A stretch of DNA of 64,000 nucleotides from an uncultured Planctomycetota bacterium (GCA_963737655.1 CAVTTN010000002.1:224001-288000); one strand, 5' to 3'; shown: positions 53,201 through 64,000, numbered from the stretch's first letter. Numbers and translations are program-made. Notes: generated by a model not told the origin, from the sequence alone.

Positions 53201-56200
53201 TCAGTCGCGCTCCCGGGTCCGGGCCACCGGGGCGAGCAGGTTCTCGACCGGCGCGTAATCGTCGCTGAGGATGATCCCCCGGGATCGGATCGCCAGGGAC
53301 TTCATGTCCACCTCGGGGTAGACCTCGGGCGTGACCTGATCGCCGGGTTCGCCGCCCCGACTCCTCCGGAAGAAGTGCGGGTCGTCGATCCTCCGGCCCA
53401 GGTCGTTGAGGTCCAGCGGCTTCTTGGAGGCGACGACCACGAAGGTCTCGCGCTCGCCCTCGCCCGGTTCGCTGGCGGTGCCGAAGACGTAGGTGTGGGC
53501 GAAGCTCTTCTTCGCGGTCTCGACCCACGAGCCGAGGAACGCGCCCACGGCGCGGGCGTCGGCCACGCCGTCGGCGGCGACCTGGGCGAGCCGATCGTAG
53601 TCGCTGGCGAAGGCCAGGTCGGCCTCGGCGGCGACGCGGGCCCAGGCGGCCAGGCGGTCCGGCGGGAGCTTCTTGAGCGAGTCGATCTTGGAGAGCGCCT
53701 GGAGGGAGGTCTCGGCCATCTCCTCGACGGTCCCCCGCTCGGGGATCTTCGCCTCGGCCAGGGCCTTGACCACGGCGGCGCGGATCAGGGCGGGCTGGTT
53801 GGGCGTGCCCTTGGCCGCCGCCTCGCCGGGCTTCTCGGCCTTCTTCGCGGCCTCGCCCGCCTTGCCCTTGGGCGGCTCCTTGGGCCACGGCAGGGCCGCG
53901 TCGGCCGCCTTCCTCGCGACCTTCGAGGTGTCGATCCCCCGCTTCTTGTCGTCCATCGCCAGGACGACCTTCTCGGCCAGCTTGTCCGAGTCCGCCGCCC
54001 CGGCCGCCTTGAGCGCCTTCTCCACCGCCGCGACCTCGGCGTGATAGAGGAACGAGAAGATCGACCGATAGTCCGACTTGTAGATGTCGATGATGTTGAT
54101 CATGTACACCCCGTCCTCGGACAGCATGGCGGCGATCCGGTCGTTGAACTCCTTGGTCGTGAGGTGCCAGGGGACGGAGAAATCATTGAAGGCGTCGCCG
54201 AAGATCAGGTCGTACTTCTCGCCCTTGTAGTGGGTGACGTACTGGCGGGCGTCGCCCCAGGTGGTCTTGATCGTGGTGTTGGCGGGCAGGAAGAGGGCCG
54301 CGTGGTTGGCCTTGGTGACGGCCGGGTCGATCTCGGCGACGTCGGCCGCGGTCTTCGGGTAGACCTCCTGGAGGTAGCGGGGATAGGTGTACGATCCCCC
54401 GCCGAGGAACATCGTCCGCAGCGGGACGTCCTCCGACTTCGCCAGCTTCAGCGTCTTCATCCTCGCCTCGACGACCCGGCGGGTCACCAGGGCGTAGATG
54501 TGCTCGTAGTCGTAATCGAGTTCCTCGGGGTGGTTCTCGATGTAGTAGCCGTGGATCAGGTTGTCCAGGACGAGCGTCCTCTTGCGGTTGCCGTCGTCGC
54601 GGAGCTGGTTCTCGATCTTGATGTAATAATAATTACTTTCGTCGATGTAAGCCTTCTCGGCGCGGGGGTCGTTCGGCTCGCCGGCCTCCTCGCGGAGGCC
54701 CCAGCTCTGCCCCTGGCTCAGGAGGAACTTGCGGGCGTTCTGCGCCGGCTTGAAGGTCCAGGAGGCGGGCAGGAGGGCCGGGGCGAAGGCGATCACGCAG
54801 AGGCCCAGCGGGATGCCGGCCCACGCCGCGTGCCAGATCGACCCCAGGACGGTGGCCGAGATGGCGAGGGTCGTCGCGAGGATCAGGATCAGGCCCTTGG
54901 TCCCGAAGACGTCGATCAGGAAGAAGCCGGCGAGGAACGTGCCGAGGATGCTGCCGACCATCCCCCAGGCGTAGACCTGGCCGATCGCCTGGCCGGTCCC
55001 CTTGGTCCGGGCCCTCACGCGGTCCACCGCGAGCTTGGCGACCACGGGGCCGACCGTCCCCATCGCCAGGCTGGGCAGGAGGAACACCGTCGCCACCCAG
55101 AACAGCACGCGGAACCCCCAGGGGAACCCCGCCATCGTCGAGGCTTCCATCAGGAACGAGTCCCGGTCGTCCTCCCGGAACTTCACCTCCCGGCCGATCA
55201 TCAGCGACTCGATCGGGTTGCGAATCCCCTTGACGACCCAGTGCGGCGGGTATTCGGCCAGGAGGATCATCGCCGTGAGGACCGAGGCGACCAGGAACAG
55301 CCAGCTCGCGTGCTTCTCCTCGCGGACGTGGTTGGCGATCCGCCCGCCCAGCCAGTTCCCCACGCTCAGGCCGCCGAGCAGCACGCAGATCACGCTCGTC
55401 CAGCCATAGATGCTCGAGCCGAGGTGGCGCGTGACGAGCCGGCCGGCGACCATCTCCAGGGACATGAACGTCAAGCTCGCCACGAACGACAGGGCGGCGA
55501 GGTCGCCCAGGCGGACCCGGGCGAACGGGCCGCTCTGCATCTCGGCCTCGGACGGCGGGAGCTCGGCCGCCGGGACCGATTTGAGCCGTCCCACCAGGCT
55601 CGCGGCGATCCCGAAGGTCAGGAGCTGCCCGGCGAGCGTCGCGAAGTTCACCTTGATCTCGGCCACGACGATCCCGGGCCAGTTCTGGAGGCCCAAAATC
55701 GACTCGAGCGACCCGATCGCGAGCAACAGGGCGGCCGCGAACGCCGCCAGGCCCAGGCCGCCTCGCTTGAGGGCGACCATCACGACCGAGACCAGCAAGG
55801 CCACGCCCCACGACCCCAGGGCCATCGCGAAGAGCCAGGTCATCGCGGTCGCCAGCGTCGGGTTGCGGCTCGCCTCGGTCGTCCCCCGGTTCAGGATCAG
55901 GTCGAGCAAGCCGCTGCCCAGCGCCAGGACGGCCAGGCCCAGCCCGACCGAGAGCAGGACCAGGGCGACTCCCCGGCCGGTCAGCCCTTCCTCATCGACG
56001 AGCACCAGGCCCACGATCAGGAGGCCGGCGGCGACGAGGTTGACGATCGTGGAGGTCGGCGCCGCGTAGATCAGCCAGTAGCCGGCCAGGAACGTCCCGG
56101 CGATCGAGCCGACGGCGCCGAGGAAATAGATGTCGCCGATCGCCCCTCCCGCCCGCTTCGCCTGCTCCACCGCCATCTTGGCCATGACCGGCGAGATCAT

Positions 56201-56578
56201 CCCCAGGACCGTCCCGGGGATCAGGAAGTCGAGCGAGACGACCAGGATCGTCCCCACGCCCAGGGGCAGCGAATTCAGCCCGGGGAGGAACCCGACCACC
56301 GTATTCATCCACAGGCAGCCCAGAGTCAGCGCCGATCCCGGCGCATAAAGCGGGGCGATGGCCCGGCTTGGCTCGATCCGGTCGGCCAATCGCCCGCCCA
56401 GGACGTTGCCCAGGCAGATCCCGCCGAGCATGATCCCGATCACGGTCGTCCAGACCGGCAGCGACGCGCCGACATGACGGGCCACGAGCCGGCTCGCCAC
56501 CAGCTCCAGGACCATGATGCAAAGGCTGCTGAAGAACGCCAGAAGATAGGGCACAACGCGGACGGCTCGGCCGTTCAT
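53201..56578 (-). CDS. Fused multi-TM (MFS-like) / spermidine-synthase-like SAM-dependent transferase
   Basis: Two membrane modules (MVLELVASRL...; MSLEMVAGRL...), then LGGGSYT, AEIDPAV, DAR, DLIFGDAF, PWHLTT.EF and LSDDYAPVE. Confidence 0.88.
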   Translation of the reverse strand: MNGRAVRVVPYLLAFFSSLCIMVLELVASRLVARHVGASLPVWTTVIGIMLGGICLGNVLGGRLADRIEPSRAIAPLYAPGSALTLGCLWMNTVVGFLPGLNSLPLGVGTILVVSLDFLIPGTVLGMISPVMAKMAVEQAKRAGGAIGDIYFLGAVGSIAGTFLAGYWLIYAAPTSTIVNLVAAGLLIVGLVLVDEEGLTGRGVALVLLSVGLGLAVLALGSGLLDLILNRGTTEASRNPTLATAMTWLFAMALGSWGVALLVSVVMVALKRGGLGLAAFAAALLLAIGSLESILGLQNWPGIVVAEIKVNFATLAGQLLTFGIAASLVGRLKSVPAAELPPSEAEMQSGPFARVRLGDLAALSFVASLTFMSLEMVAGRLVTRHLGSSIYGWTSVICVLLGGLSVGNWLGGRIANHVREEKHASWLFLVASVLTAMILLAEYPPHWVVKGIRNPIESLMIGREVKFREDDRDSFLMEASTMAGFPWGFRVLFWVATVFLLPSLAMGTVGPVVAKLAVDRVRARTKGTGQAIGQVYAWGMVGSILGTFLAGFFLIDVFGTKGLILILATTLAISATVLGSIWHAAWAGIPLGLCVIAFAPALLPASWTFKPAQNARKFLLSQGQSWGLREEAGEPNDPRAEKAYIDESNYYYIKIENQLRDDGNRKRTLVLDNLIHGYYIENHPEELDYDYEHIYALVTRRVVEARMKTLKLAKSEDVPLRTMFLGGGSYTYPRYLQEVYPKTAADVAEIDPAVTKANHAALFLPANTTIKTTWGDARQYVTHYKGEKYDLIFGDAFNDFSVPWHLTTKEFNDRIAAMLSEDGVYMINIIDIYKSDYRSIFSFLYHAEVAAVEKALKAAGAADSDKLAEKVVLAMDDKKRGIDTSKVARKAADAALPWPKEPPKGKAGEAAKKAEKPGEAAAKGTPNQPALIRAAVVKALAEAKIPERGTVEEMAETSLQALSKIDSLKKLPPDRLAAWARVAAEADLAFASDYDRLAQVAADGVADARAVGAFLGSWVETAKKSFAHTYVFGTASEPGEGERETFVVVASKKPLDLNDLGRRIDDPHFFRRSRGGEPGDQVTPEVYPEVDMKSLAIRSRGIILSDDYAPVENLLAPVARTRERD

Positions 56579-56852: not shown

Positions 56853-58786
56853 ATGGACGCTTCCCTTCAACGACGCCCCGCCGCGATCCCTCACCGCGTC
56901 CTCGTTCCGGCGAACGCCGGGCCGGACCCCGGCTCGCGGACCTCGCTCCGGACCTCGCTGGCCCAGGGGATCTGGCTCGGACTCCTCGGGGCGTGGCTGG
57001 AGCTTGGCGTGGTCCTCGGCCATCGGCGGCTGGTGGGCCAGGTCACCGACGTCTCCCGACGGCTCCACTGGTTCCACGTCCCCCTCGGCGTGATCGCCCA
57101 TCTTGCCCTGTTTATCGGATGGTTCGCCCTGGCGGTTTTGATCCGTCGCCGCCAACCGCTCTCGAGCCGGCGGGACCTCGTTTCCACGATCCTTGCGTGG
57201 TATCTCGCGGTCCTTTCGCCGTTGCTGGCGATCGAGGAATTCTACTGGCCCTGCGCCACGTGATGGCCGCGCTGTTCGCCCTGAAGATCGCCCCGGTGTG
57301 GAGGGACCGACGCCCGGCCATCCTCCGACGGACCCTGCCGATCCTGGGAACGGCGTCCGCCTTGCTGGTGATCGGCGGATTCGCCTGGCCCTCGTGGCAG
57401 GAGGCGCGGTCACGGGCCGTTCTGCCTCCGATCCGGGCCGGCGCCCCGAATGTCCTCCTGATCGTCCTGGACACCGTCCGCGCCGACCATTTGAGCCTCT
57501 ACGGCTACCACCGAGACACCTCGCCCCGGCTCCGAACCCTGGCCGATCGGGCGATCACGTTCGATTTCGCCCGCGCCTCGGCCCCCTGGACCCTGCCGTC
57601 ACATGCCACGATGTTCACCGGCCGCTGGCCTCACGAGCTTTCCGTCGACACCGATCGCCCGCTCGACGCCACCCATCCCACCCTCGCCGAACACCTCGCC
57701 CGCCACGGCTACCTGACCGGCGGCTTCTCCGCCAATACCTATTACACCAACGCCTGGCACGCCATCGACCGAGGTTTCGCCCACTACGAGGATTCCGTCG
57801 AGAACCGGACGTTCTCGGTCCAGGAAACCCTGAGGACCGCGGCGGTTTTCCGCCGCCTGATGCCCTTCGCCGTCCGCCTCCATCTCTGGAAGACCCGGGG
57901 CGACACCTCAAGGCGGATTCCCGCGTCCGAAATCCGCCAGAACACGCTCGCCTGGCTCGATGCCCAGCCGGCCGACCGGCCGTTCTTCCTGTTCCTGAAC
58001 TTCTTCGACGCCCACGACCTCTATGAAATCCCCCAGGGGTTCCAACCCCGGTTTTCGACGGCCGATCGGGCAACCGTCGAGCAAGCCAACCGCGTCTATT
58101 TCAAGAACATGAAGCCCGGGGGCGACAAAACGCTCGCGGCCGAGGCCGGCAAGCTGCTGATCGACGTCTATGACGATTGCATCGCGTCCATGGATGAGCA
58201 AGTCGGCCGGCTTCTGGACGACCTCGACCGTCGCGGCCGGCTCCGCGACACCTGGGTGATCGTCACGGCCGATCACGGCGAGTTCTTCGGCGAAAAAGGG
58301 CGATTCGGCCACGGATCGGGCCTCGATCGCGGAGTGATCGACGTCCCCCTCCTGATCGTCCCGCCCCGAGGAGGCTCAGGATCGCATCGAATCGCCGCCC
58401 CAGTCAGCCTCCGAGACCTCCCGGCCACGATCGCCGACGTGACCGGACTCGCCAACGACTCACCCTTTCCGGGCCGATCGCTCCGCCGAGCCTGGCACCC
58501 CTCCCCGGGAACCAGCCTCGACGACGTTCCGCTCTCGGAATTCAAGGCATTCGAGGGGCCCATCCCCAGGAGCGAGAAGAACCCGGCCGATCGGTTCGAC
58601 GCGGTGATCGTCTCGGGCGATCGCATCTACCACAAAAACCGGACCCGGCCCGACGAACTGTTCGACATCCACGACCGAGACGAGGCCCTCAATCTCGCCC
58701 CCCGGCCCGACTCCAGGGCGACCCTGGATCGGCTCGGCAAGTTGCTCCAAAACCTGTCGCGAAACGCCTCGATCGAGCCTCGATGA
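56853..58786 (+). CDS. Membrane-anchored sulfatase-like hydrolase/transferase, frameshifted near 57260
   Basis: N-terminal TMs; PNVLLIVLDTVRADH, WTLPSHATMFTG, FFLFLNFFDAH, TADHGE and VPLLI. Confidence 0.85.
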
Positions 58787-59564
58787 CCGAACCCCCAACC
58801 GATCCCCCGCCCCAGGGTGACACTCGGGCCATCGACAAGTGCCGGCGCCATCCAGACAAATTTACATGATCGCCCGGAATCGAAACGTCCGCACGCCTCG
58901 CCATCCCTCGCCCGACAACGCAACGACCCACTCCCGGACCCCAGGTCCATGCCCCGACCCAACCCAATAGCCCCCCTCACGGCCCACCTCCGAATCTCGG
59001 AAATCGAAGCCCCAACGACGCCACCCGCACGTACCAAACCATCGAAAGCCACCCCCACCCCCGATCACCCAATCCCCGAGGACGCCCCTCCCCAACGGCC
59101 CCTCGAACGCTCCCCGGACAATCCGCCACTCCCGACGAAAACACGGCGGCGAAGCTCCAAAACCCGATCGGCGCAAGCCGTTCCAGGCTCAACCTTTGCT
59201 CGTCAAATCTCAACTAATTCAAAAATCAACAAACATGGCCTGGCACAAGTGACTGCGCGCTAGAAATCCCTGCAAAAACCGCCCTCCGGCGCGTTTTTCG
59301 GGAAAAAGTGTAGTCAACTTCCGCGAAATTCTCGATCGCACATCTCCATGAGGAATAAAATTTGAGCAATCAAACGAATCAATCAGATTCCGACCCAAAA
59401 ATCCAAAACACCGGCAATCCCCAGCGCGCCAACCGCCCGCAAACCCCACCCCACCCGACTCTCTCCAGCCAATCCCCCGAAAACCCCAGACCACCCAGTC
59501 TCGCAGCACCAGTGACCATTCAGAGAGTCATCGTCGGGGATTGAGGCTCATGTGGCATGCTTGC

Positions 59565-59628
59565 GGTGCATGGCACTGGTGAGCATTTCTGGGTGCCACT
59601 GGTCGTACTCGACCAGTGCCATGCGCCG
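59565..59628. repeat. REP-like palindrome
   Basis: GCATGGCACTGGT (59568-59580) / ACCAGTGCCATGC (59612-59624), with nested hairpin CACTGGTCG-TACT-CGACCAGTG. Confidence 0.6.
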
Positions 59629-59674
59629 TCGTTGCAATCGGCGAAGCAACGAGGAGAGAATCCCGAAAAAATCC

Positions 59675-59769
59675 TTGCAAGGCGAACTCCCCGCCGGCAA
59701 AATCAATCACCGGTCCGAGATTATCCATCCGAAACGACGTGATAAACCGCATCATTTCGGACGTATAAT
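59675..59769 (+). promoter_or_regulatory. Candidate cassette promoters (Pc-like)
   Basis: TTGCAA(59675)-N17-CAAAAT(59698) and a perfect TATAAT at 59764, upstream of the first cassette. Confidence 0.45.
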
Positions 59770-59802
59770 CCCGCAGATTCGGAGATTCTGCGTCACTTTC
59801 GA

Positions 59803-59821
59803 TGTCTACTTCATGTTAGGC
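59803..59821 (+). other. attI-like primary recombination site
   Basis: TGTCTAC-N5-GTTAGGC, the 7-5-7 simple-site geometry. This first GTTAGGC core is not preceded by an attC stem. Confidence 0.6.
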
Positions 59822-59840
59822 GTCCTGCAAATCGTGGTGC

Positions 59841-59993
59841 CTATAGCGATATCTTTCCGGTCAGGAGCATCCAACTCCGAATCAGGGTCAGGACGAGACA
59901 CGTCAACATCCCCGCCCAGGCCCACCGGAACGTCGGCCGCCACTCCGGCCGTAGTTCTTCCATCGCCCACTGCCGTCTCAGCCAAGCGACCAT
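59841..59993 (-). CDS. Cassette A: 50-aa putative membrane peptide in reverse orientation
   Basis: MVAWLRRQWAMEELRPEWRPTFRWAWAGMLTCLVLTLIRSWMLLTGKISL fills the non-attC part of the cassette (59816-60090). Confidence 0.45.
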   Translation of the reverse strand: MVAWLRRQWAMEELRPEWRPTFRWAWAGMLTCLVLTLIRSWMLLTGKISL

Positions 59994-59996
59994 GAC

Positions 59997-60096
59997 GCCT
60001 AACCTCGCGCTGCAGCGGACCCGCAACCGCCGCCACGATTGTTGTAGTCTCAACACAACTCAGGCGGGTGCGGGCCGCTGAGCTTGGTCGTTAGGC
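59997..60096 (+). repeat. attC site 1 (100 bp)
   Basis: GCCTAAC-CTCGC-GCTGCAGCGGACCCGCA...TGCGGGCCGCTGAGC-TTGGTC-GTTAGGC. Confidence 0.93.
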
Positions 60097-60754
60097 GGCT
60101 CAGGAGTCGAAGCCTTCGGTCGTGCTCGTCGTCGGCCTCGCCGGTCGCGCCTCGGCTCGACGACGCCATCGGTCGGGCCCCTGGAGTCGGCCTCGGCGGT
60201 GGTGCGCGTCGTCGCCCTCGCCGGCCGCGCCCCCGAGGTCGGGCCCGTCGGCCGGCGCCCCCCTTGCCAACGCCGTCGGTCCGTGCCAGGATCGTCGGTG
60301 TCGGCGCGTGGGGCGTCGCCGGGGCGCCGCCTAACCCGGCGCTGCAGCGGACCCGGCCCGCGGTCGACGATCACTCTCCTCTCAATCTCGCCGGGCGCGG
60401 GCCGGTCCGCTGAGCTTTGTCGTTAGGCGGCTCAGGAGTCGAAGCCTTCGGTCGTGCTCGTCGTCGGCCTCGCCGGTCGCGCCTCGGCTCGACGACGCCA
60501 TCGGTCGGGCCCCTGGAGTCGGCCTCGGCGGTGGTGCGCGTCGTCGCCCTCGCCGGCCGCGCCCCCGAGGTCGGGCCCGTCGGCCGGCGCCCCCCTTGCC
60601 AACGCCGTCGGTCCGTGCCAGGATCGTCGGTGTCGGCGCGTGGGGCGTCGCCGGGGCGCCGCCTAACCCGGCGCTGCAGCGGACCCGGCCCGCGGTCGAC
60701 GATCACTCTCCTCTCAATCTCGCCGGGCGCGGGCCGGTCCGCTGAGCTTTGTCG
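60091..60754 (+). mobile_element. Cassette B, two tandem 332-bp copies (60091-60422, 60423-60754), apparently gene-less
   Basis: Direct repeat with period 332, bounded by GTTAGGC cores; only low-complexity GC-rich ORFs. Confidence 0.85.
60329..60428 (+). repeat. attC site 2 (100 bp)
   Basis: GCCTAAC-CCGGC-GCTGCAGCGGACCCGGCCCGCG...CGCGGGCCGGTCCGCTGAGC-TTTGTC-GTTAGGC. Confidence 0.93.
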
Positions 60755-60760
60755 TTAGGC
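60661..60760 (+). repeat. attC site 3 (copy of attC 2)
   Basis: Same sequence as 60329-60428. Confidence 0.93.
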
Positions 60761-60770
60761 GGCAGAGGCC

Positions 60771-61052
60771 ATGCACTACGTCGTCGCCCTTCTACCTGCC
60801 GTTGTTCTCATGGCCGCACTCATCGTCGCGGTTGTCTCGGCTCGCCGGCTCAAGCCGTGTCCATCATGCTGTCGGCGTGAATTGCGTTGCGTCAACTTCG
60901 TCAAGGCCACTGTCATCACCGACGACCGGCGTGCCCCGGACTCGTGGTCGTTCCATGCGTGTCGGGCATGCGGCGCAGCGTTCAAGCTCCATCGCGGCCG
61001 GTGGTCAAGCGTCGAAGATCGCGAACGCCACTACTTCGGCGGAGCCGCCTAA
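60771..61052 (+). CDS. Cassette C: 93-aa membrane-anchored zinc-ribbon protein
   Basis: AGAGG RBS right after the core; N-terminal TM; CPSC...CRAC; TAA stop lies inside the GCCTAAC inverse core. Confidence 0.8.
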   Translation: MHYVVALLPAVVLMAALIVAVVSARRLKPCPSCCRRELRCVNFVKATVITDDRRAPDSWSFHACRACGAAFKLHRGRWSSVEDRERHYFGGAA

Positions 61053-61148
61053 CCTCGCGCTGCAGCGGACCCCGCACCGCCGCAACGGTTTATGCTATGA
61101 TTCAACGTCGCTCGGGCGGTGCGGGTCCGCTGAGCTTCGGCGTTAGGC
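61047..61148 (+). repeat. attC site 4 (102 bp)
   Basis: GCCTAAC-CTCGC-GCTGCAGCGGACCCCGCACCGCC...GGCGGTGCGGGTCCGCTGAGC-TTCGGC-GTTAGGC. Confidence 0.93.
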
Positions 61149-61417
61149 GTCCTGCAAATCGTGGTGCCTATAGCGATATCTTTCCGGTCAGGAGCATCCA
61201 ACTCCGAATCAGGGTCAGGACGAGACACGTCAACATCCCCGCCCAGGCCCACCGGAACGTCGGCCGCCACTCCGGCCGTAGTTCTTCCATCGCCCACTGC
61301 CGTCTCAGCCAAGCGACCATGACGCCTAACCTCGCGCTGCAGCGGACCCGCAACCGCCGCCACGATTGTTGTAGTCTCAACACAACTCAGGCGGGTGCGG
61401 GCCGCTGAGCTTGGTCG
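61143..61417 (+). mobile_element. Cassette A', second copy of cassette A (275 bp; reverse ORF 61168-61320)
   Basis: Matches 59816-60090 at an offset of 1327. Confidence 0.9.
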
Positions 61418-61423
61418 TTAGGC
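61324..61423 (+). repeat. attC site 5 (copy of attC 1)
   Basis: Same sequence as 59997-60096. Confidence 0.93.
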
Positions 61424-61440
61424 GGCGGAGGCTTTGTCCC

Positions 61441-62211
61441 ATGACGATGTTTCGGGCATTCTCAGGCTTCGCTTGCCACGGCGAGACTGTGGCGTCTAAC
61501 AACCGAGAAGCCTGCACGAACGGCCATAGCCGGCTGGGAATCCCGATCTTGTACTTCGGTCAGGCTCGCGGTGCAGAGTACCAGTGGATTCACTTCAACG
61601 AGAATGACCTGCCCGGGACGGAGATGGAACTCGAACGGGCGGTCCAGATGAATCCCGAAAGCACCCTCATTTTGGGAGACGAGGTAAACGCGCGGATGGG
61701 CGCCAAAGATTACGCTGCGGCCTACGTCCATTGGTTCAACTGGCTCAAGGAGCGTAGTCCGGTCACAAGGCTTTCAACCTGCGGGTTCGAGGCCAACCAC
61801 AATCCGTTTGTCTTCGCGGAAGAATTCATCATCGAAGCGCGGAAGACCGTTTATGTCGATGAGTTTCGCTTCAACGCGGCGTTCGCTGTTTCTGGCGACC
61901 TGGGCGCTTTTGATTCGTATCTTGGACAGGCTCAGACGTTCGCGAACAGCCACGGCTACCGGAACAAGTACTGCATCGGCTCATTCTTCTCCGATCCGGG
62001 GCTGAGTGCGGACCAACTGCGGAAGGCAATGCAGTTAATTCATCGACAGGGGACGATCAAGGAAGCCGTGTACTGGAGCTTTGAGAGTCATACGACCGCC
62101 GTGCATAACCCGCTCGCGGAGTACGACGGCAACCAAGTTCCGCGATTGAACCTCCTCGGCAGAACTTTTGCCCAAACCGTCCGAGACATCGCTGAGGGGA
62201 CTTCGATCTGA
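61441..62211 (+). CDS. Cassette D: hypothetical protein, possibly a glycoside-hydrolase-like TIM barrel
   Basis: GGAGG at 61427; lower GC than the host genes; LILGDEVN...DYAAAY...W and C-terminal RLNLLGRTF resemble clan GH-A/GH128-like proteins. The gene is well supported; the function is weak. Confidence 0.7.
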   Translation: MTMFRAFSGFACHGETVASNNREACTNGHSRLGIPILYFGQARGAEYQWIHFNENDLPGTEMELERAVQMNPESTLILGDEVNARMGAKDYAAAYVHWFNWLKERSPVTRLSTCGFEANHNPFVFAEEFIIEARKTVYVDEFRFNAAFAVSGDLGAFDSYLGQAQTFANSHGYRNKYCIGSFFSDPGLSADQLRKAMQLIHRQGTIKEAVYWSFESHTTAVHNPLAEYDGNQVPRLNLLGRTFAQTVRDIAEGTSI

Positions 62212-62645
62212 AAAATCTAGGAATGCCATTCAGCGTCAGTTCAATTTAGCGGCTCCGGCCGATCCGCCTCTTCGTGAACTCTTTGGCTGGGAACGGCCAT
62301 CGACGCGCAACACTACCCCAACCCCAGGCTTTGTGGCCGGGCAGCGGCGAGGTCCGGGTAGCAAACCGACGGATTCAAGAGCGGCGGACGAGGCGCGGGC
62401 CGAGAGGGGAGTCGGTTACGTTTGCAGTCTCTTCGACGGGAACATCCCCGCGAGTCGGCTCGCGGGGCGTCGCCAATGACCGGATCACGACCTCTCGGGC
62501 CAGGCTAACCTACGGGCAGGGAGCACCAAGGTGGAGACGGCCGGGAGGCCCGCGCCACACTCAGGCTACGCCGCGCCGGGTCGGCGGGCAAGTCGTCCCC
62601 GACCCCCGTTCACGCCCCGTCGGGAGCGGACGAAGGCCGCAGGAT

Positions 62646-62707
62646 GGTTAACCTTGCGCTGCAGCGGACCCCGGCCACGGGCCGCGCTTTCTCATTCTCA
62701 CAAGCTC
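62646..62707 (+). repeat. Truncated attC site 6 (left arm only)
   Basis: GGTTAAC-CTTGC-GCTGCAGCGGACCCCGGCC... has the same left arm as the other attCs; the right arm is missing. Confidence 0.8.
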
Positions 62708-62888
62708 GGAGGGTCAAAAAGGGGACGGGAGGGTCAAAAAGGGGACGGAGCGAATAAATTCAGCTTTTTGCATTTTGCCGCGTCTCATCCAGGCCGAACT
62801 TATTCACTCCGTCCCCTTTTCGGCCCCACGTCCCCTTTTCGGCCCCACCGTCCCCTTTTCGGCCCCACTCCGTCCCCTTTTCGGCCCC
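62708..62888. mobile_element. Hairpin (REP/MITE-like) element with tandemly iterated ends
   Basis: Inverted repeat 62737-62764 / 62793-62820 (25/28). Left end GGAGGGTCAAAAAGGGGACGG occurs twice; right end CGTCCCCTTTTCGGCCCC occurs four times. Confidence 0.75.
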
Positions 62889-63601
62889 GGCCAAGACGAC
62901 CCGGAGGCGCTGGCGGAATTGGCCAAGGGGCGGCTGCGGGCCAAGATCCCGGCGCTGCGGCTGGCGCTTCGCGGGAAGGTGACCGAGCACCACCGCTTCC
63001 TGCTGCGGCTCCTGCTGGACCACTACGAGGCGCCGGAGGCCCTGATCGGCCGACTGGGGAGCGGATCGACCGGGTGCTGGCGCCGTACGCCGAGGCGGTG
63101 GAGCGGCTGGAGACGATCCCCGGGGTCGGCCGCCGGGTCGCCGAGATCGTCGTCGCGGAGCTGGGCGTGGAGATGGGGCAGTTCCCGACGGCTCGCCACC
63201 TGGCGAGCCGGGCCGGGATGTGCCCCGGGAACAACGAGAGCGCCGGCAAGCGCCGCAGCGGCAAGACGACCAAGGGGAGCCGCTGGCTACGGACGGCCCT
63301 GATCCAGGCGGCGCACGCGGCGGGCCGGAGCAAGGCGACGTATCTGGGGTCGGGGTACCGTCGGCTGGCATCGCGGCGCGGGGCGAAGCGAGCGGCGGTG
63401 GCGGTGGGCCATACGCTGCTGGGGATCATCTACGAAGTCCTGGGCCGGGGGACGACCTACGAGGATCTAGGCCCCTGCTACCTGGAGCGGTTGGAGCCCG
63501 AGCGATTGACCCGGCAACTGGTCAGGCGCTTGGAACGGCTCGGCCACAAGGTTACATTGGAACCCAACGAGGCGGCCGCGTAGGGCGCATTTTCAGAACA
63601 G
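62889..63601 (+). mobile_element. IS110-family element remnant: 5'-truncated, frameshifted transposase (stop at 63583) plus a short end
   Basis: DPEALAELAKGRLRAK...HHRFLL, then after a shift near 63058 LETIPGVG...AELG...FPTARHLAS.AGMCPGNNESAGK...AVAVGH...YEDLG. The N-terminal DEDD domain is absent; the end reads ATTTTCAGAACAG. Confidence 0.9.
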
Positions 63602-63618
63602 GCGGCGGAGGACGGCGT

Positions 63619-64000
63619 ATGGCGAAGGCTCGTGTATCGGACGTCTTCTCCGCGTATCGCCTCTCCGGCGAGCCTATTCCCGGCGATGTCGCGATCCTCC
63701 TGAAACAAGCGGAGGAACTGGCCGAGCGCTCGGGGATCGAGCTGAACTGGAAGAAGGTCTGGTCCCCATGGTCCGATACGAGCTATCTCACCAAGTCGGA
63801 CCGCCAGAACCCAGATACCATGGCCAACGTCCGGGCGATTGCGGATGTGTGCAAACTGGTCGCATTCGTCGCCGCGACCGACGAGGATGAGTGCATCGGC
63901 TACTGGCGAGGTCCGCGCATGCGTCCGGTCAAGAACTCCCCACTCGTCCTCTTCGACAACGAGGGGCAATTCACGCTATGCGGCTCCAGTTTCACCGAGG
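63619..64000 (+). CDS. Cassette E: hypothetical protein, SMI1/KNR4 (SUKH) immunity-like; runs off the window edge
   Basis: Manual translation: MAKARVSDVFSAYRLSGEPIPGDVAILL...FVAATDEDECIGYWRGP...SPLVLFDNEGQFTLCGSSFTE, preceded by AGGCGGCGGAGG. Not in the ORF track. Confidence 0.7.
   Translation, partial: MAKARVSDVFSAYRLSGEPIPGDVAILLKQAEELAERSGIELNWKKVWSPWSDTSYLTKSDRQNPDTMANVRAIADVCKLVAFVAATDEDECIGYWRGPRMRPVKNSPLVLFDNEGQFTLCGSSFTE

Follow-up and report, generated by a model that had tools for sequence, protein, structure and literature searches.

How might gene cassettes come to lie behind an integron attachment site (attI) that has no integrase gene beside it? Such an array stands at the end of a 64-kb stretch (the window, G000:C2:224001-288000) in the genome, G000, of an uncultured Planctomycetota bacterium, an assembly of 7.63 Mb in three contigs that is 87.7% complete. 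An initial annotation had proposed that this platform kept attI and a promoter and is, or recently was, serviced by an integrase encoded elsewhere. We found support for that proposal: the platform is a copy of the attI and promoter region of a distant integron integrase (IntI), and duplicated cassettes are bounded by the crossover point, G|TT. Judged from sequence comparison, the window probably holds a satellite platform, attI plus cassette promoter (Pc), served in trans by that IntI.

An attI platform and a distant integrase

Five complete attC sites and a sixth half site lie in the window part of the array, all as the initial annotation had described them. They were scored with a covariance model based on relatives, the array lying on the plus strand:

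59997-60097, plus strand: attC1
60329-60429, plus strand: attC2
60661-60761, plus strand: attC3
61047-61149, plus strand: attC4
61324-61424, plus strand: attC5
62646-62701 as scored (62646-62707 as the listed part), plus strand: attC6, left half only

The model comprises 16 attC sites, all from relatives of G000, with two-sided changes at six of 26 base pairs; because a profile derived from G000 had first picked out these sites, the model is independent only in part. The complete sites, homogeneous and about 100 bp each, score 78.8–92.5 bits on the bottom strand (E 3e-20 to 4e-24) and 32–44 bits on the top strand, the half site scores 10.7 bits (E 1.6), and the highest-scoring other match in the whole window reaches 14.3 bits; the failure of the repeats to score, which would have undone their assignment, did not occur. 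Folding of the bottom strand (four of the five sites, attC2 and attC3 being the same) gave hairpins at z −4.7 to −6.1, and none of 200 shuffled sequences folded as well. The window sites thus have the R''/L''/L'/R' pairing, extrahelical bases and bottom-strand hairpin of attC, and two further strong sites follow beyond the window end.

The head of the array is laid out as follows:

59564-59628, no strand: inverted repeat resembling a repetitive extragenic palindrome (REP), fold z −4.8, where intI would begin
59628-59821, plus strand: integron platform, a copy of the intI-attI intergenic region at G000:C2:6778089-6778282
59803-59821, plus strand: attI core, with L box TGTCTAC (59803-59809), 5 nt, and R box GTTAGGC (59815-59821)

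By blastn, the platform is 89.7% identical over 194 bp (E 2e-69) to the spacer between intI and attI of the IntI detected in G000; a pairwise comparison of platform copies gives 91.7% over 180 bp, and 96% over the final 45 bp. The attI geometry claimed for 59803-59821 is present, its crossover falls at 59815/59816, and the core is identical to the one beside intI. A platform model built from relatives only detects the same site (E 2.8e-4 among array heads, 0.057 genome-wide). That this core might be the stump of a deleted attC was rejected because the attC model gives no match ending at 59815; its identity with the intI-adjacent core speaks against a stump as well.

Going upstream in a local alignment, the match to the intI locus tails off around the start codon of intI (CATG at 59620), beside the REP-like hairpin, whose motif has 10 matches per strand in G000. 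Searches of 58700-59700 for an intI remnant returned only noise (best E 0.88 for protein by tblastn and 0.12 for DNA), and such a remnant was rejected. The same kind of search finds one at the C2:6863k platform at E 5e-4 (loci are named by their position on contig C2 in kb) and is therefore able to see short remnants. The initial annotation was right that the upstream kilobase holds no tyrosine recombinase, but the "end of a sulfatase-like gene" that it saw there is a whole open reading frame (ORF) in the flank, outside the element (57260-58786, plus strand; PF00884, E 8.5e-45). attC clusters that lack an integron-integrase (CALINs) have at least two attC sites, here five in the window and two beyond, and no integrase gene within 4–10 kb; the nearest PF00589 match lies about 230 kb away. 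A complete integron has an attI with its crossover core, which is present, and an adjacent intI, which is not. The locus is by definition a CALIN, although it would work like an integron platform, most likely one served by the distant integrase.

The integrase presumed to lie elsewhere was found by a search of the genome: TIGR02249 has one match over its cut-off in G000, at C2:6777135-6778073 on the minus strand (474.6 bits against a cut-off of 265), with no stops. This 318-aa ORF lies 6.5 Mb from the window on the same contig, aligns end to end with VchIntIA (2A3V; E 1e-93) and heads an array of 19 attC matches. Compared with 2A3V it retains what we take to be the catalytic positions and the IntI-specific insertion, so that family match, catalytic residues, insertion and intact frame all mark it as an integron integrase. 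In the mechanism that we propose, the window platform was copied from the intI-attI region of the integron without the integrase gene. The single IntI would excise cassettes from any array (attC × attC) and insert them (attC × attI) at its own attI and at satellites, placing them behind a promoter.

Signs of cassette traffic and further platforms

The cassettes behind the window attI run in the order A-B-B-C-A, followed by a sixth:

59816-60090, plus strand: cassette 1, 275 bp, with short doubtful ORFs only and attC1; a 100% copy of cassette 5
60091-60422, plus strand: cassette 2, 332 bp, 77% GC, without a convincing ORF; attC2
60423-60754, plus strand: cassette 3, a 100% copy of cassette 2; attC3
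60755-61142, plus strand: cassette 4, with a Cys-rich 93-aa ORF at 60771-61052; attC4
61143-61417, plus strand: cassette 5, twin of cassette 1; attC5
61418-62707, plus strand: cassette 6, with a 256-aa ORF of unknown family at 61441-62211; left-half attC

Cassettes 1 and 5 are identical over 275 of 275 bp, the identity breaking one base before the G of GTT and ending just past the next crossover. Among 81 delimited cassettes, the only twin of cassette 1 comes after an attC; likewise, the first cassette at C2:1672k is 99.85% identical over 666 bp to cassette 9 of the intI array, and this only twin also follows an attC. Neither first cassette has an attI-plus-cassette donor among the 81, which favours insertion at attI by an integrase over homologous copying. 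Cassette B (331/332 bp) occurs in 10 copies of 99.1–100% identity across four arrays: two in the window, three at 1673k, three at 1969k (one directly at attI) and two in the intI array (one directly at attI). From the boundaries of these duplicates we infer attI × attC recombination by IntI at the window platform.

Cassettes could also be shared among arrays by host homologous recombination or gene conversion, using platforms, attC sites and a 382-bp inserted element as homology, with IntI not acting at the window attI. The arrays are rich in repeats of 95–100% identity, recA is present, the tandem pair of cassettes 2 and 3 may reflect unequal crossing-over, and the platform looks mosaic. An order A-B-B-C-A whose first A begins exactly at the attI G|TT, however, has no homologous donor among the delimited cassettes, and the same is true at 1672k, which makes this explanation quite improbable.

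Nor is the window platform a one-off. The claim that attI was kept without intI is borne out, and the case is one of many in G000 and its relatives; G000 has 13 attI-like platforms, the last few weak, on one 7.6-Mb contig (C2):

Window, C2:1121k, 1672k, 1969k, 5884k and the intI locus: full type-A platforms, pairwise identity 73–94%
C2:5876k: type-A platform with its palindrome deleted
C2:4847k and 6361k: shorter or diverged type-A platforms
C2:5881k: 47-bp piece of a type-A platform
C2:293k and 6863k: platforms of a second type (type B), resembling the regions beside intI in two genomes of the same genus (E 5e-9 and 3e-7); that at 6863k keeps an intI 5' remnant
C2:4536k: candidate for a third type (E 0.0016 among array heads)

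Altogether, 89 attC-like matches form 15 clusters in G000, ten of them with at least two sites; one of the ten is the complete integron, and six of the nine others carry a platform, the three longest among them. Platforms occur also at the tail of arrays or inside them: the type-B platform C2:293183-293312 (L021:11184-11313) sits 9.5 kb downstream of the window attI at the array tail, and the type-A platform C2:5884730 lies mid-array within the 5877-5893k array.

The window could instead be a fresh relic, a complete integron until recently, whose cassettes were shuffled by its own integrase before this was deleted, leaving an array that is now inert. One deletion could remove intI without a trace, and similarity ends near the start codon beside the REP-like hairpin; intI decays in place in relatives and at the C2:6863k platform; and CALINs can arise, by a route already published, when one of several integrons loses its intI, according to the passages available from PMC4889954. 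Such a history would need three independent, very recent intI losses (at the window, 1672k and 1969k), because each of these loci has cassettes 99–100% identical to those of other arrays while their platforms have diverged by 6–18%. A −10 box resembling that of an integrase promoter (PintI, described below) is already altered at all three, and, as the attI core matches that of the intact integrase exactly, IntI would face no obvious obstacle to acting at the window. We consider the relic unlikely.

We give hardly any credence to the idea that a cassette inserted at a secondary (attG) site founded an ordinary CALIN here, or that repeated DNA was mis-assembled. Insertion at such sites has been demonstrated as a route (10.1101/2022.09.11.507474, in the passages available), the 330–332-bp length variants suggest sequencing indels, and the tandem pair could be mis-assembled. 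A CALIN derived from attG would begin at a short secondary site without attI, whereas the window is headed by the 194-bp copy of the intI-adjacent region; the platform copies differ by 6–27%, have different flanks and lie on a single contig, and the pattern recurs in independently assembled relatives.

Likely promoters, proposed origin and upkeep of the platforms

Three features upstream of the attI core bear on how the platform is expressed and how it arose:

58935-59560, plus strand: dispersed non-coding repeat (X-long), about 70–74% identical to copies at six other loci, four of which are array heads
59675-59703, plus strand: likely Pc, TTGCAA-N17-CAAAAT, about 140 bp upstream of the crossover
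59716-59773, no strand: imperfect 58-bp palindrome that holds TATAAT, with a weak fold here (z −1.4)

A promoter at TATAAT had been proposed. The box is present at 59764-59769, about 50 nt before the core, but it is not conserved, and sequence comparison makes TTGCAA-N17-CAAAAT the likelier cassette promoter. TATAAT was rejected as Pc, being altered in three of the five other full copies and lying within a palindrome arm; it may have a role as a second promoter. When 18 platforms of seven genomes are aligned, all 18 have TTG followed, 24 and 28 bases on, by A and T. Upstream of 3119 predicted genes, the TTG-N17 pattern peaks at spacer 17, with 92 occurrences versus 27 on the reverse strand and 6–49 for other spacers.

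The 58-bp palindrome is confined to the type-A copies of G000. TATAAT lies in its right arm, and the mirror image in the left arm, on the minus strand, is the PintI-like −10, likely that of the integrase promoter. This box reads TATAAT at the intI copy and is degraded to GATAAT in the window; it is altered in five of the seven integrase-less type-A copies scored, and the Pc-like pair is kept in all seven. The sequence of the arms varies among copies, yet the two arms differ by 0–2 mismatches in four copies, three at intI and six in the window (one copy is without the palindrome), which suggests arm-to-arm correction. A shorter palindrome, CGTG-N6-CACG (window 59739-59760), overlaps the likely integrase promoter and has at most two mismatches in 16 of the 18 aligned platforms; an operator and an accessory IntI site are possible roles for it. 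Sought as an SOS box, it was not seen upstream of lexA or recA, both present in G000; planctomycete LexA does not use the E. coli motif, according to the available passages of PMC3108266.

Across 41 genomes, G000 counted, 15 have an IntI over the cut-off. The window platform sequence itself was found by blastn in none of 24 family relatives, and one 25-bp match was the only one among 40 genomes. Six relatives (assemblies 68–99% complete; kin, and so non-independent) were each queried with their own intI-adjacent region, and five of them have extra platform copies: four each in G003 and G023, seven in G013 (one 22-bp match dropped), nine in G012 and one in G022. The G013 query gave one extra copy in G015. 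Among 25 extra copies in six relatives, several of them partial matches and only some followed by attC matches, three have a near-whole degenerate intI upstream, five have stubs and 17 have no trace (one of these with only 32 bp upstream). The unit that was duplicated takes in intI both in G013 (94.6% over 1129 bp) and in G012 (89.3% over 2867 bp). The three intI-stub platforms of G023 share 1.3–2.2 kb, including a different upstream element, and have short attC arrays with cassette DNA in common with the G023 intI array. The series from decayed intI through 5' stubs to none points to duplication of whole integrons followed by loss of intI. We propose that satellites arise in this way, the redundant intI decaying or being deleted (in the window, at the REP-like hairpin) while attI and Pc are kept. 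Self-mobilisation as a giant cassette was rejected: inspection by eye found no GTT-type junction at the distal ends of the units duplicated in G012, G013 and G023.

Three further observations concern relatives. In G023 (L103:5216-7163), a gene from what looks like a repeated family lies upstream of all three intI-stub platforms; the upstream element has no Pfam match and no tblastn match in G000 at E 0.01. In G013 (L107:8098-8919), a second tyrosine-recombinase gene, 39% identical to IntI, lies directly behind the attI of an intact integron. In G016 (L044), intI has attC sites on its 3' side, on the same strand, an arrangement that differs from the other loci viewed.

The X repeat suggests another origin, in which the platform spreads alone, without intI, carried by or targeted to X. 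Its core motif, at 59234-59337 in the window, has 68 copies in G000, none within a predicted gene and with no gene-orientation bias; the spacing of 61 nt between two motifs is fixed in 32 of the 46 copies measured (65 examined). X was rejected as protein-coding, since its third-base variation is suggestive but that spacing is fixed and frames close at random. Sought as a structured RNA, the core gave no consensus fold on either strand, in a weak test whose shuffled control also gave zero; Rfam matches in 58600-64000 numbered 18, all far below gathering scores and none credible. Seven of the 13 platforms have an X core within the 1.5 kb upstream of them, as do 1.3% of random intergenic positions; the count of seven is inflated by the shared ancestry of the X-linked loci, and X copies also occur without any integron part. 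Most extra copies have no intI trace, and the G023 stub platforms share the stretch of 1.3–2.2 kb with its different upstream element, as such spread might predict. The exact X pattern, however, is found in none of 40 relatives, though relatives show the same platform multiplicity; X copies have no transposase evident by eye among predicted neighbours and no defined ends were found; and whole-integron duplicates are seen directly in G012 and G013. This origin, which is rather unlikely, overlaps with our preferred account in that the distant IntI would serve the platforms in trans all the same.

Two further patterns bear on service in trans by the distant IntI. Identity between the window and 1672k/1969k is 71–83% in the flanking repeat and 96–98% in the last 45 bp before the crossover, a rise that would follow from selection or conversion preserving attI. 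Cassettes that have a twin sit closer to attI (18 of 76 ranked, five without a platform being left out; Mann-Whitney p 0.007; integrase-less arrays only, 14 of 57, p 0.010), but the test is non-independent and inflated, 10 of the 18 twinned cassettes being one cassette and ranks being bounded by array length. Together with that caveat, several points weigh against service in trans or against the duplication route. With the assembly 87.7% complete, a second intI may have escaped detection. A sigma-70 consensus scan of 58700-60000 returned no promoter; the Pc-like pair, at 8 of 12, falls below its threshold. Clusters 819k, 4297k and 4673k, three of the nine integrase-less arrays, have no recognisable platform, and no extra copy was found in G001 (820 contigs). 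The window platform, itself closest to the intI copy, appears as a mosaic of variants shared with different copies; its flank resembles the 1672k and 1969k loci and is 32–67% identical to the intI locus upstream of −270, so simple, recent duplication of the intact integron does not account for the window copy, to which gene conversion or platform-only copying may have contributed. With these points counted, service in trans still seems to us the probable reading; what we infer from the sequences is that recombination occurs in trans, that the promoter is active, that selection acts on the platform and that the window copy arose by duplication.

A broader proposal, which we put forward tentatively and at somewhat less than even odds, is that a single integrase runs attI-plus-Pc docking stations networked across the whole chromosome in this planctomycete family, selection keeping them in working order. 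If so, each station would be an extra promoter-proximal slot, and many arrays classed as dead CALINs would be live receivers whose attI is invisible to present tools.

Inserted elements and known systems

Beyond the complete cassettes, the array is interrupted by inserted elements:

62265-62646, plus strand: non-autonomous element of 382 bp, inserted within the left (R'') box of attC6
62707-62890, no strand: REP-like direct and inverted repeats, in place of the right half of attC6
62890-63605, plus strand: 3' part of a second IS110-family element (PF02371, E 4e-21), ending at a cassette junction
63619-64000, plus strand: start of a further cassette ORF, 190 aa, without a Pfam match; the array runs beyond the window

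The 382-bp element has 28 near-full copies on C2 (the window and 27 elsewhere), mostly more than 97% identical, and all 28 are inserted at the same point of an attC left box, with the attC left end next. It shares a 160-bp non-coding stretch, possibly a guide-RNA region, with a 1.9-kb IS110-family element that bears a transposase (seven copies; L021:6190-7985) and encodes a 450-aa protein with Pfam IS110 domains. An attC carrying the 382-bp element may still recombine, because a cassette bearing it is found both at the 1672k attI and in the intI array. The second IS110-family element is 98.6% identical over 724 bp to a copy at the attI of C2:4847044. In G000 and the same-genus G003 it sits, whole or as a miniature of about 90 bp, exactly at attI and attC cores (GTTAG) (window 62890-63605; G000:C2:4847045, 1121477 and 4298512; L043, L062 and L064).

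As for cargo, PADLOC matched none of seven cassette proteins, the 93-aa product of cassette 4 has neither a Pfam nor a PADLOC match, and DUF4329 was the sole Pfam match over cut-off among the cassette ORFs tested. Cassettes 2 and 3 (60091-60754) have, read by eye, a TTGCCA-N17-CAGGAT pair near the 3' end, and this most-copied cassette (332 bp, 10 copies) may be a promoter cassette. Elsewhere, the window encodes PSCyt1, PSCyt2 and PSD1 domains, a gene content that suggests a planctomycete, and an ORF of 1125 aa (53201-56578, minus strand) that looks like a membrane protein with repeated hydrophobic blocks; it has no Pfam match at E 1e-5 and a motif that we take to be methyltransferase-like. The GC skew of G000 is too flat to place the replication origin or orient the array to replication.

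CALINs were defined by Cury et al. in 2016. In the available passages of that paper (PMC4889954), CALINs number 279 against 164 complete integrons, pseudogenes lie near 15 of the 279 and 95% have no recognisable intI pseudogene; loss of intI is among their origins, as donors of cassettes they may keep a link to an integrase far away, and attI was searched by exact match to classes 1–3 only. CALINs are discussed there as donors cut off from Pc, whereas the array in the window comes with an attI and a Pc-like pair of its own, and cassettes appear to enter it. The passages of PMC9892861 (2023) offer a direct precedent for a CALIN with attI at its head, an integrase-less array headed by the attI of a complete integron; that case is one extra site within a 40-kb prophage, whereas G000 has about a dozen platforms on a 7.6-Mb contig, with signs of cassette traffic and a family-wide occurrence.

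Sedentary chromosomal integrons (VchIntIA, 2A3V; PMC8352920; Xanthomonas, 10.1101/2025.06.18.660453) resemble the system in the IntI family, the homogeneous attC sites of about 100 bp, cassettes of unknown function or without ORFs, and intI decay. One platform beside intI is the rule there, and extra attI sites at CALINs are not described in the passages available; these list a Planctomycetes attC class (PMC8352920) and say that Xanthomonas CALINs can be mobilised in trans (10.1101/2025.06.18.660453). Single attC sites lacking integron-integrases (SALINs) and CALINs derived from attG (Loot et al., 10.1101/2022.09.11.507474) likewise involve IntI acting away from its own locus, in the passages seen, but their target is a short secondary site and that in G000 a full attI platform. 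The 382-bp element and its 1.9-kb relative, inserting at a fixed point of attC, recall the IS1111-attC group and IS110 elements as presented in passages of PMC11187229, where Tetu and Holmes 2008 is cited; the 382-bp form is non-autonomous, and a shared non-coding stretch upstream of the transposase is, on that account, the IS110 and not the IS1111 layout. Gene-less cassettes are reported to have promoter activity (10.1101/2023.11.21.568050, PMC6557892).

Many platforms per genome are not reported in the available passages of 10.1101/2022.02.06.479319, PMC3108266, PMC11023631, PMC8618304 or PMC11187229, and a literature search that left most subscription journals outside its scope found no description of a genome-wide set of attI-headed CALINs. 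The platform multiplicity, traces of traffic and decay series make the origin and activity of CALINs directly testable. The test is simple, a query of the genome with its own intI-upstream region: in G000, it shows six of nine integrase-less arrays to bear a platform, into which cassettes seem to move. It can be applied wherever intI and CALINs coexist and, if the pattern is general, the unit of adaptation would be one integrase with many expression sites, not one integron. Together, all the parts described here are of known kinds, with one published precedent found for an attI-headed CALIN; their interest lies in how many platforms there are, in the signs that cassettes have moved and in the series of intI decay across the family.

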